Below are positions 10,956 through 15,469 of a stretch of DNA of 64,000 nt, piece by piece. The translations under genes were made by a program, and so were the position numbers. The notes under the pieces are model-generated. The model ran no database searches and was not told the DNA's origin. It saw nothing but the letters and a program-made list of their open reading frames with translations. Each line of letters starts with the position of its first letter. The first letter of the stretch is position 1. The DNA is from a virus, in IMG/VR virus record IMGVR_UViG_3300046665_000589, positions 29,508-93,507 of that record. One strand, 5' to 3'.

Positions 10956-10980
10956 GCAATAAGTATGCCAGCTTTGTCGG

Positions 10981-11095
10981 GATTTGCCAATTTTGTGCAA
11001 AAGTTGCGCAAAATTTTCAAAAATTTTTGAAAATCGGGTGGTTTTGGCTGTTTTGTTGCAGAAAAGCAACAAAAAGTTTGAAAAATTGCTGGAAA
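10981..11095. repeat. A/T-tract region with a perfect 22-bp palindrome (11013-11034); probable packaging/terminus zone
   Basis: ATTTTCAAAAA|TTTTTGAAAAT plus two more inverted repeats; lies at the late/early divergence next to terS. Confidence 0.6.
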
Positions 11096-11335
11096 TGGCG
11101 GAGGGACCTGGTAGGCCAGGCGCCGGCAACAGGCCAAAAGCTCCTATACGTCACCCAAGGCACGATCGGCACCGCCCGCGTGCGTTCCGTCGTCCGGGTT
11201 CGCGCGCCCCGCCACGGGCCTAAAAACGGCCTTGCTGGGCGTGGCACACTTCTTGCTTTAACCGGCCGGGCCATAGGCTAGGCCTATCAACTTGACAGTG
11301 GCCATAGCCTGGCACAGTTCATGCTTAAGCGCCGC

Positions 11336-12336: not shown

Positions 12337-13040
12337 TGCCCCGCATGGGGCATTTACCAAGGGCCGCGCGCCCTTGGTAAGTGTCTCAAGTCCAAGCATA
12401 GCGCTTGGCCGCGTCGGGTTCCCGCTTCGCTGGCGTCGCTTCGCCACTGTCGCGTGTCTCCTTCGTGTCGCTCTTAGCTGGCAGCAGTCGCGCCAGCAGA
12501 CAATTTGATCCCGCCAACCTGACGCCAGTCGCGCCAGTGTCGCGCCCTTGCTTCGCGCCGTTTCCCTCGGTAGCGTCGCTTGGAGCGCTTCATGGGCAAC
12601 GCTGGCAGGGCGCGGGAATTGAAGCTTAAAAGCAAGAGTAGATATCGGTACAGTCAGCTAGATGAACGATGATATCGGATTGCGGAGCATAGAGCATTGA
12701 CGCGGGCAGCAACTAGGCCAGCGCACAGCGCGCCGACAGTGATACGGTCGGCTACAGGGTGGGCCAGCAAGGTCATACCGCAGCGCGTAGATGCCTGATC
12801 CTTCGGGAGCTAAACCGGCCACACCGGGCACGCAAATAACGCTAGTCACTGGACACATTCGATCCTTGCCAAGGCCAGCCACATCGGCTGGCAAATCCTA
12901 GACGGCATGCAAGCCGGACTAGGCCGCGATGAGCGGGACCGCTTTGGCAAGCGGCCATACGCCTTGCCCTCCCCGGCGTCGAAATAGGGGAGGGGGAATA
13001 CCCTGCGCATTGTGGACTGTTCAGTGCGCAGTCATTCCAG
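12337..13040 (+). ncRNA. Candidate large structured non-coding RNA or structured leader
   Basis: ~700 nt without a credible ORF; long hairpins, a multibranch junction (12865-12951) and an H-type pseudoknot (12959-12994). Confidence 0.5.
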
Positions 13041-13053
13041 ACAGGAGGACCAC

Positions 13054-13362
13054 ATGGACCTGCAATCGGCCTTGCGCGGCATCCTGCCGCAGATCACGCC
13101 AGCAACACCGGCAGCACCGGCCAAACCGAAGGCGAAGGCGAAGGCGAAGGCGAAGGCGAAACTGCCGCGGCGCCTGGCCGTCGGTAGTTTCGACTGCGGC
13201 CGCAAGGCGTTCGACACTACCGGCACGGTCGGCCGCTTCGACCCGAGCCGGCCGCCGCCGGTGCACCCGCCCGGCTATTCCGAGCACCGGTGCGACCCGC
13301 ACCGCATCCACCTGAGCACCACCCGCGCGCTGCGCCTGTGGTCGAAAACCGAAGTCAAATAG
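13054..13362 (+). CDS. Basic hypothetical protein with a (KA)n run
   Basis: AGGAGG RBS; (GAAGGC)5 in-frame repeat. Confidence 0.65.
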   Translation: MDLQSALRGILPQITPATPAAPAKPKAKAKAKAKAKLPRRLAVGSFDCGRKAFDTTGTVGRFDPSRPPPVHPPGYSEHRCDPHRIHLSTTRALRLWSKTEVK

Positions 13363-13371
13363 GAGAACATC

Positions 13372-13566
13372 ATGAAACGCATCACCGTTTTCGGCTTTGC
13401 CGTGATCCACGCGGCGCTGCTGCTGTTGCTGGACCAGATCGCCAGCGAGAATTTCCTGGGCTACGGCCTGCTGCTGCGCGGGCTGGTCATGGTCATGCTC
13501 GCGGCCGATGTCGTGGTCGCCTACGAGGCGCTGCGCGGGCTGTGGCGGGCCGAGGTGCGGGCATGA
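13372..13566 (+). CDS. Small membrane protein
   Basis: AGGAG RBS; two hydrophobic segments. Confidence 0.6.
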   Translation: MKRITVFGFAVIHAALLLLLDQIASENFLGYGLLLRGLVMVMLAADVVVAYEALRGLWRAEVRA

Positions 13567-13724
13567 ACCGCGGCCTGGCGGTGGGTTTGCTGATGCTGGC
13601 CTGCATGGCGGTACCGGCGCTGTTGCGGTTGCTGTAGAGTAAGGACAGGGGCGGTGTCGGTTTCGATTGAAACACGCCCCTGTTCGATGTAAGTTATTTA
13701 AACCAAAATAAAAGGGGAAATTGT

Positions 13725-13922
13725 ATGTACAAAGCACGCAAAATGCTGCCCAAGGAATTGCAGGCAGCAGACAACAAAGGTCGCCAGCGCGTTTTCTGCG
13801 TTGAGCACGACAGCGGCAAGGTTGTCAGGGCTAACCTGACTTGGCCGGAGGCCTGCACGGAGGCGCGCGCCCGCACGCGCAACGAGGTCGAGCGCAGCTT
13901 CGCCGACCTCTGCCCGGCCTAG
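13725..13922 (+). CDS. Hypothetical protein
   Basis: AGGGG RBS after an AT-rich tract; ends just before the ribozyme. Confidence 0.6.
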   Translation: MYKARKMLPKELQAADNKGRQRVFCVEHDSGKVVRANLTWPEACTEARARTRNEVERSFADLCPA

Positions 13923-13924
13923 CA

Positions 13925-13979
13925 GGACGAAACCCGGCCGCGCGCCGGGTCTGTGCGTGTGACGCACACTGACGAGTCC
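13925..13979 (+). ncRNA. Type II hammerhead ribozyme
   Basis: GGAC-GAAA-CCCGGC(cgcgc)GCCGGG-UC^-UGUGCGU(gug)ACGCACA-CUGACGA-GUCC: all core nucleotides and three stems present, open at stem II. Confidence 0.92.
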
Positions 13980-13998
13980 ACCCACCACGGAGCCCACC

Positions 13999-14298
13999 AT
14001 GACCACCCAAATCACCACCTTCAACACCGGCCGCCAGTACAGCGACAAGGGTCAGCGCATCGCCTGCGCGCTGCTGCCCGACGGGCGCGTGATGTTCGCC
14101 GACGTCGACCGCAACCTCGACGGCATCACGCAGGGCGCCATTGCGCCCGGCTTGCAGGCCGGCGCCGACCTGCGCGAGTTCGTGATGAACTCGTACGACT
14201 ATGGCGCGTACAACAGCGGCTGCCACGAGTGCACCAGCGGACAGGCCGCCCGCGACCAGATGATGGCCGAACTCAAGGCCGCAGCACTGAAGCTGTAA
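13999..14298 (+). CDS. Hypothetical phage protein (FNTGRQYSDKGQRI motif)
   Basis: GGAG-CCCACC-ATG start immediately 3' of the ribozyme. Confidence 0.75.
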   Translation: MTTQITTFNTGRQYSDKGQRIACALLPDGRVMFADVDRNLDGITQGAIAPGLQAGADLREFVMNSYDYGAYNSGCHECTSGQAARDQMMAELKAAALKL

Positions 14299-14390
14299 CC
14301 AGACAGCAACACCCGAGCAACAAGGCCGCCGCGAGCGGCCATTTTTACGCCACCATGAAGACACTCATCCAAAAAATACAGGGAGGCATC

Positions 14391-15469
14391 ATGCATCACC
14401 TGCTGTCGGAGCGCCTGCCGCGCCCCATGCCCACCGGCGAGAACCACCTGACCCCGCTCGACCAATTCACCATCACCGCAGGCACCACGCCGTTCGCACT
14501 GTGCAAGCAGCACGGCCACTACGACATCGTCATCAACCTTGAGCTCGAGGTGGGCTATTTCCGCCACCAGAAGGGCCTGTACGAGGGCCGCTTCTGGCTG
14601 GCCGGGCGCACCTTCCTGGCAGCCGAGCACCTGCTGCCGCGCGACGTGCAGAGCGGCCTGGCCAAGCTCGGCTACGAGGTGGCGTGATGAGCGCCGCCCG
14701 ACTTTTCCGCGGCGAGGCCCGCGAAGACATCCTCTTCCACGATGTCGCCGTCTGCCACTATTTCAGGTTCCGCGGCCACGTGTATGAGAAAGTCAGCACC
14801 GACAAGGGTCGCCCTTGGGGTTGCGGCGAGCGCGAAATTCGCACGTTTGCAGCCGACGACATCGTGCAGGTGGCGAAATGAACCCCGACTATGCCAACCT
14901 GTTTCTGCTGACCGACGCGCTCAAGCGTCTGTTCGCAGCCGAGTTCAAGGGTGAAGGCAGCCAGCGCCGCGCGATCGCCGAGTACGACTCGACCCGCGCG
15001 CGCGTCCAGAAGGTCAACCCGGAAGCCTTCACCGCGTTCTGCCAAGCCTTTATGGTGCGGCCGGACGCCACCGGCGCTGACATCCTCAAGGGAGGCTCGT
15101 GATGTTGGCCTTCGTTAGTCCTGGCAGGTGGCGCATCCCTGCGTGGAAGGGCGCCTTCGCCGTGCGCGTGCACCGCCGCCCAGCCGCATGGGAATTGCAG
15201 GACGCGCAAGGTCGCCTCACCTTCGGTGACGGCTTCGAGTCGCTCGCGCACCTGCGCGCCTGGCTGAAGGAGGCAGCATGAAACGCGCCGCCATCGCCTT
15301 CAAGCACATCGGCATTGGCCAGTGCTTCACCTGCGAGCTCCAGGTCTGGACCAAGCTCAACGAGCAGGAGGCCAGCTCGGACACCTGCCGCGCCACCTTC
15401 CCGCCCGACCACCCGGTTACTCAGGGCACCACCGTGCCGTCACCACGGAAGCCCCAGACCTCGCGGTAG
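14391..15469 (+). other. Five small coupled hypothetical CDSs (14391-14687, 14684-14881, 14878-15102, 15099-15281, 15278-15469)
   Basis: ATGA/GTGA overlaps and RBS motifs. Confidence 0.65.

Follow-up and report, generated by a model that had tools for sequence, protein, structure and literature searches.

Type II hammerhead ribozymes have been described from bacteria, prophages and phages (PMC3088659; Rfam family RF02276, clan CL00010), and phage and prophage examples have been found to cleave both in vitro and in vivo (PMC3088659, PMC8782182). Hammerhead cleavage leaves a 2',3'-cyclic phosphate on one product and a 5'-OH on the other (PMC8782182). Perreault et al. reported that loop I and the 3' tail can pair over at least 4 bp in most type II hammerheads, giving a pseudoknot (PMC3088659), and that such pseudoknots are needed for fast cleavage (PMC3088659). 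The role proposed for these ribozymes is the processing of long phage transcripts into single-gene messages; in reviews, the purpose of bacterial and phage hammerheads is left unresolved (PMC6765202). Another relevant system is engineered. RiboJ and related synthetic insulators (PMC6206723) place a hammerhead just before the ribosome-binding site (RBS), so that upstream RNA is removed and the message starts with a defined hairpin. With RiboJ, the transcript level of the downstream gene rises about twofold and its protein level two- to tenfold (PMC6206723).

The element analyzed here lies in what we call the window, the final 64 kb (64,000 nucleotides) of a 93.5-kb IMG/VR virus record derived from an uncultured phage of about 93 kb. 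Elements of this kind have been known in phages since 2011, and the new example shares with them the catalytic core, the permutation, the position in a phage intergenic spacer between co-oriented genes and the proposed role. It departs from the RF02276 consensus in several respects: its stem II has 4 bp (GGAC/GUCC) where the consensus has 2 bp, its stem-loop I is 17 nt long and the consensus loop I is larger, and it has no supported counterpart of the consensus pseudoknot, in which a conserved 3' tail takes part with at least 4 bp. It is also present as a single copy rather than in a cluster. With RiboJ it shares the position just before an RBS, the predicted removal of the upstream RNA and the defined hairpin at the 5' end. 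However, RiboJ is engineered, derived from sTRSV, equipped with an added hairpin and placed after a promoter, whereas the window element is natural, of type II and located between two cistrons, so the 3' end of the upstream product would also carry a hairpin. A single further hammerhead on a long list carries little weight alone. Our overall reading, which we consider very probable, is that a genuine type II hammerhead is carried in the transcript of a 65-aa and a 99-aa gene, where it is predicted to cut itself and thereby to uncouple the two cistrons.

Anatomy of the element and its flanking genes

The features of the locus are collected in Table 1. Judged from its sequence, the segment 13925-13979 of the plus strand is a genuine type II hammerhead in which every core position is intact. 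The sequence-only reading had placed a type II hammerhead here, on the sense strand, with a CUGACGA and GAAA core, a GUC triplet cut after C13951, a stem I of 7 bp, a stem III of 6 bp plus an A-U pair and an open 4-bp stem II GGAC/GUCC. The core, the helices and their order can all be read directly, and these structural details proved correct at the positions it gave. Its extent needs a small revision: the motif does span 13925-13979, but the functional unit is better set at 13924-13980, since the A residues flanking stem II are conserved across the subclass described below.

Table 1. Features of the ribozyme locus, in window coordinates.
Feature	Position	Strand	Basis or remark
Upstream gene P0001, 65 aa	13725..13922	+	ORF; TAG stop 13920-13922
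Ribozyme, full unit including A13924 and A13980	13924..13980	+	core, fold, model, descriptor
Stem II 5' strand GGAC, positions 11.4-11.1	13925..13928	+	pairs with 13976-13979
Core G12 A13 A14 and A15.1	13929..13932	+	direct reading
Stem-loop III: A15.1-U16.1 (A13932-U13950) and six G-C pairs, loop CGCGC	13932..13950	+	reading and fold
Predicted cleavage site C17 (13951) / U1.1 (13952)	13951..13952	+	hammerhead consensus, GUC triplet
Stem-loop I, 17 nt (6-7 bp), loop GUG	13952..13968	+	U13952-A13968 to U13958-A13962
Core C3 U4 G5 A6 C7 G8 A9	13969..13975	+	direct reading
Stem II 3' strand GUCC, positions 10.1-10.4	13976..13979	+	fold
Shine-Dalgarno GGAG of P0002	13989-13992	+	6 nt before ATG 13999, 37 nt from predicted new 5' end
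Downstream gene P0002, 99 aa, conserved small phage protein family	13999..14298	+	homologue alignment
Intrinsic-terminator-like hairpin: 6 G-C pairs, 5-nt loop, then A and TTTTT	14324..14346	+	scan and fold

Read along the plus strand from 13920 to 14001, the order is TAG, C, A, GGAC, GAAA, CCCGGC-CGCGC-GCCGGG, U, C, UGUGCGU-GUG-ACGCACA, CUGACGA, GUCC, ACCCACCAC, GGAG, six bases and the ATG. Stem II is built from the pairs G13925-C13979, G13926-C13978, A13927-U13977 and C13928-G13976, and the six G-C pairs of stem III run from C13933-G13949 to C13938-G13944. U13958 is the first loop position of stem-loop I. On both sides the core agrees with the consensus, as CUGACGA with C at N7 and as GAA (13929-13931) followed by the A13932-U13950 pair, and the residue at the cleavage site, C13951, is not a G. 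Perreault et al. (2011) rejected candidates with non-Watson-Crick pairs next to the core, at 10.1-11.1 and 1.1-2.1 (PMC3088659); here both pairs are Watson-Crick, namely G13976-C13928 and U13952-A13968. [quoted passage not shown]

The unconstrained minimum free energy (MFE) fold of 13915-13998 is exactly the hammerhead three-way junction. Shuffled sequences fold just as stably (z = 0.2), as expected at a GC content of about 64-70%. In a longer context of 151 nt, the hammerhead-constrained fold is 1.4 kcal/mol less stable than the MFE. Two copies of the heptamer CCCGGCC stand 20 nt apart at this site, at 13913-13919 and 13933-13939. The first falls within the final codons of the upstream gene and can compete for the 3' strand of stem III; when the 5' cleavage product is folded, its MFE structure has this copy in place of the 5' strand of that stem. 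The heptamer is found 23 times in the window where about 22 occurrences are expected, and an upstream competitor helix was rejected as a trait of the subclass (4.91 vs 4.89 for permuted pairs).

The intergenic gap between the two flanking genes is 76 bases. Both ORFs are taken to be real, co-oriented genes because homologues of both stand side by side in two viral contigs, where those of the 65-aa protein (48% identity) adjoin those of the downstream one. The alignment of the 99-aa family holds 10 homologues and 27 invariant columns. Two long ORFs that run over the ribozyme site (13953-14687 on the plus strand and 13831-14364 on the minus strand) were dismissed as spurious high-GC frames, since the frame kept in the homologues is that of the 99-aa protein. 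Searches of Pfam, PHROG and PDB with both flanking proteins returned no match, and a protein-atlas comparison gave scores of at most 0.87 and assigned no function. In the centroid structure of the 3' cleavage product, the Shine-Dalgarno sequence of the downstream gene remains unpaired. Beyond this gene, the terminator-like hairpin folds with -19 kcal/mol (z = -3.0) and is likely to form the 3' end of the processed message.

A GGAC/GUCC subclass below the Rfam threshold

To judge the element against chance, a loose descriptor of our own was used, covering type I, II and III topologies with an exact core and stems of at least 2-4 bp. It found one site in the 93.5-kb genome, the ribozyme, with stems of 4, 7 and 7 pairs; 60 genomes of matching composition, simulated by a first-order Markov model, gave none. 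A covariance model, R1, was built from 74 other phage hammerhead copies with the window left out, and gave the window element 64.2 bits (E ~1e-16); this score is not fully independent, as the core and stem II, by which those copies had been searched for, contribute much of it. Together, the descriptor and the model scores make a chance origin highly improbable. No second hammerhead was detected in the genome by RF02276, model R1 or the type I/II/III descriptor.

The sequence-only reading had named the Rfam Hammerhead_II model as a check. With permissive filters, RF02276 matches the element over its full length with 29.6 bits (E = 2.1e-5 over the whole genome), but this is under the 37-bit gathering cut-off, and at gathering thresholds Rfam reported nothing in the whole window. 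The same model, applied to ten sampled loci of the subclass with about 30 copies, gave 26-33 bits among the matches listed and never 37. Since these copies fall short too, the low Rfam score is a property of the model's seed and not a defect of the window copy. The subclass is thereby missed by routine annotation, because it scores below the Hammerhead_II cut-off.

The subclass was collected by a pattern scan of IMG/VR for GGAC-GAAAC...GUC...CUGANGA-GUCC, with stems I and III left free. The pattern gave at least 171 matches in at least 119 viral contigs; both hairpins were formed in 152 of the 171 matches listed, and more than 140 distinct copies were obtained. The denominators used below for distinct copies come from the matches listed and range from 137 to 141, depending on the flank required. 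Stems I and III covary: in 74 copies, 11 of the 13 variable pairs change on both sides, with a covariation score of 0.72 vs 0.14 for shuffles. As these rows had been pre-filtered for hairpins, the 99% pairing is partly due to selection, while the both-sided changes are not. The commonest form, a 17-nt stem-loop I (93 of 138 among the matches listed), is also that of the window, and C is the base at N7 in 42 of the 141 copies listed.

Three residues that are absent from the search pattern, and are thus independent features, stand out in the copies listed. An A lies directly 5' of GGAC in 137 of 141 copies, and in 56 of the 60 where no stop codon overlaps it. Directly 3' of GUCC, an A is found in 104 of 141. 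The seventh base of stem-loop I is a U in nearly all copies of both length classes among the matches listed (91/93 for 17 nt, 38/39 for 18 nt). The window element has all three, as A13924, A13980 and the loop-I U13958.

The placement between genes is equally regular. In 117 of the 122 copies listed, a same-strand ORF precedes the ribozyme, its end a median of 2 nt away, with modes of 0 and -1, at which the stop codon overlaps the conserved A; the distance in the window is 2 nt. An RBS and start codon follow at a median of 21 nt after the ribozyme in 107 of the 122 copies listed, and after 19 nt in the window.

Many subclass contigs carry 2-5 copies, and in L007, L011, L016, L040, L046, L073, L098, L118 and L124 there are 3-5 within a few kb. 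In such multi-copy contigs stem I is often near-identical between copies while the stem III sequences differ, a pattern that suggests duplication within the genome. A further motif, G[AG]CU, is seen exactly 6-7 nt after the ribozyme in 20 of the 137 copies listed (~15%; consensus AG-N3-GACU), for example at L124:4219-4294, L009:2658-2741 and L058:1933-2003, and is absent from the window. Its complement, AGUC, lies in the 3' strand of stem II, so the two could pair into a competing hairpin or one that forms after cleavage.

The sequence-only reading had further suggested that loop I (GUG) could pair with a downstream CAC. This idea was not borne out: the helix has only 3 Watson-Crick pairs, less than the 4 bp of the published pseudoknots, and is at chance level by permutation. 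Across the subclass, a loop I pseudoknot was rejected as unsupported when the apex of stem I was compared with the 14 nt downstream of the ribozyme (mean longest Watson-Crick helix 2.65 vs 2.77 for permuted pairs). A different contact is suggested by the conserved residues. Most natural type I and III hammerheads have a 4-bp helix II and a loop 2 that begins with a purine and ends with A (PMC2632901), and this 3' A forms a reverse-Hoogsteen pair with the U at the 5' side of loop 1, as reported by Dufour et al. (2009), who cite the crystal structures of the sTRSV and Schistosoma hammerheads (PMC2632901). In the subclass, the conserved A's flank the 4-bp stem II at what would be the 3' side and the 5' side of an opened 'loop 2', and loop 1 starts with U, in agreement with the motif seen in natural hammerheads, loop 1 U / loop 2 R...A. 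The likeness to the motif of Dufour et al. comprises the 4-bp helix II, the 5' purine, the 3' A and a helix I of about 6 bp followed by U. There are also differences, as loop 2 of the window element is not closed and its ends run into the mRNA, loop 1 has 3-5 nt instead of being a heptaloop, and no extrahelical pyrimidine is evident at its 3' side. From the conservation of the residues and their match to the published motif, we infer that in the subclass stem I docks to stem II by contact of the loop 1 U with the flanking A's, with loop 2 opened into the mRNA. For type II hammerheads with no pseudoknot, the conserved A and U residues provide a docking model that can be tested.

Predicted cleavage and competing explanations

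Most likely, the ribozyme cuts the shared transcript in two. The transcribed RNA would fold into the three-way junction, U13958 of loop I would dock to A13924 and A13980 on either side of the open stem II, and the bicistronic RNA would then cut itself between C13951 and U13952. At the 3' end of the upstream RNA would be the G-C-rich stem III hairpin, and C13951 would carry a 2',3'-cyclic phosphate. The downstream RNA would start with a 5'-OH on U13952, flush with the stem I hairpin, and would have a free RBS; such a 5'-OH hairpin end had been foreseen in the sequence-only reading and, if cleavage occurs, it follows from hammerhead chemistry and the sequence. Extended to the terminator-like hairpin at 14324-14346, this RNA would be about 395 nt long and carry a single cistron. 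Stability and translation of the two genes would thereby be uncoupled, as with synthetic ribozyme insulators. Decay by RNase E depends on a 5'-monophosphate, and 5' hairpins stabilize RNA. By analogy with this and with RiboJ, a 5'-OH hairpin end and a hairpin at the 3' end may slow decay. One could also speculate about timing: while a ribosome terminates at 13920-13922, the 5' part of the ribozyme would be hidden beneath it, so folding may have to wait until the ribosome is released.

From the topology of the three permutations, type II would be the only one to leave hairpins on both new ends. This leads to a wider proposal, which we put forward tentatively as possible rather than probable. 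The capping of both products may be what favours type II at the junctions between phage genes, where it would act as a 'post-transcriptional terminator plus 5' cap'; at this locus it may have replaced the G-C hairpin and T-run of the relatives; docking may proceed through the opened loop 2; and a large subclass built in this way may lie under the Rfam cut-off.

The relatives bear on how the ribozyme came to be here. No hammerhead was found near the gene at seven loci with homologues of the downstream gene (43-61% identity), a set from which the closest homologues (66-67% identity) and three contigs encoding an identical protein are excluded. Two of the seven relatives are complete genomes of about 90 kb with terminal repeats, and the records of four relatives, searched in full with both models, contained no hammerhead anywhere. 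Single-protein scans for the 99-aa protein in genome and metagenome contigs gave no relatives, and an alignment-based scan found three short metagenome loci, none of them with the ribozyme. Among the relatives reached, the ribozyme therefore appears to be specific to the lineage of the window, and with the ribozyme missing from them there is no orthologous conservation or covariation at the site.

This distribution is what would be expected of a neutral passenger, a cleavage-competent hammerhead gained by recombination that cuts without benefit or selected role. Its single copy in the genome, its absence from the seven relatives, the two complete genomes included, and the scattering of its form of stem II over many viral contigs, often in multiple copies as if it spread, are all compatible with such an origin. 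Against it, the core and the tertiary-motif positions are all intact, the tight, subclass-like spacing to the stop codon and RBS argues for selection on position, and the downstream gene with a terminator of its own makes a tidy processed unit. We therefore regard a neutral passenger as rather unlikely.

In two of the relatives, L005 and L006, the orthologous spacer holds a plain hairpin instead (3220-3247 in L005, identical in L006), a G-C hairpin with the same loop as stem III, CGCGC, followed by TTTT. A consensus terminator scan did not flag it, since there are just 4 T's, and when the two spacers were aligned, only the RBS and start codon were convincingly homologous. In a second alternative, stems III and I might primarily be structures for RNA stability or for pausing and attenuation, with cleavage slow or marginal for want of pseudoknot docking. 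The ribozyme-free spacer with its CGCGC-loop hairpin and TTTT, the chance-level complementarity of the pseudoknot and the competing fold within 1.4 kcal/mol would fit such a scenario. Hairpins, on the other hand, have no need of CUGACGA, GAAA, GUC and GGAC/GUCC in exact register, the probability of that register arising by chance is negligible, the conserved U and A residues offer an alternative docking contact, and no U tract follows stem III; we consider this explanation improbable. That the site is a chance look-alike with no ribozyme activity is hardly credible: an Rfam score below the gathering cut-off, a fold energy no better than shuffles and the lack of conservation in relatives could be cited for it, but against it stand the descriptor count of one real site to none in 60 simulated genomes, the E ~1e-16 of the subclass model, three conserved features that played no part in the discovery, an orientation and spacing typical of the subclass, and sampled subclass copies that, among the matches listed, all fall under the same Rfam cut-off.

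For the reading we prefer, a self-cutting hammerhead that separates the two cistrons, the locus offers a clean single-copy case with a defined terminator and relatives that carry a plain hairpin, and thus a natural system for studying cistron stability and translation.

Genomic surroundings

The genes for terminase, portal, protease and the major head protein run leftward from about 10 kb of the window, and the ribozyme lies about 2.3 kb inside a rightward cluster of ORFans that is divergent from this terminase and head module. Helicase and primase genes are found at 52-57 kb. The sequence-only reading had called the flanking genes early, which is plausible. A blastn comparison of 13000-15000 with 50,697 phage records matched nothing, and a consensus promoter scan found none upstream of the gene pair.

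Between the leftward packaging and head module and the rightward ORFan cluster, the non-coding segment 11338-11410 contains iteron-like direct repeats, about five copies of CCAGTACAG and its variants, together with an inverted ACTGTAC. The array is a candidate for protein binding and could be an origin, an operator or a partition site. Nearby, 10960-11100 is very A+T-rich with repeated CAAAA/TTTTG words, upstream of a leftward gene that starts near 10956. One promoter-like match is located there on the minus strand (10990-10962), and the segment is likely a divergent promoter region. Closer to the ribozyme, in the 87-nt gap before the 65-aa gene, there is a 9-bp hairpin at 13645-13683 (ACAGGGGCG ... 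CGCCCCTGT, with a 21-nt loop), which may be the 'structured element' that the earlier reading had alluded to in the upstream RNA. It overlaps a weak promoter-like pair, TTGAAA (13667-13672) and TAAGTT (13690-13695), separated by a 17-nt spacer.
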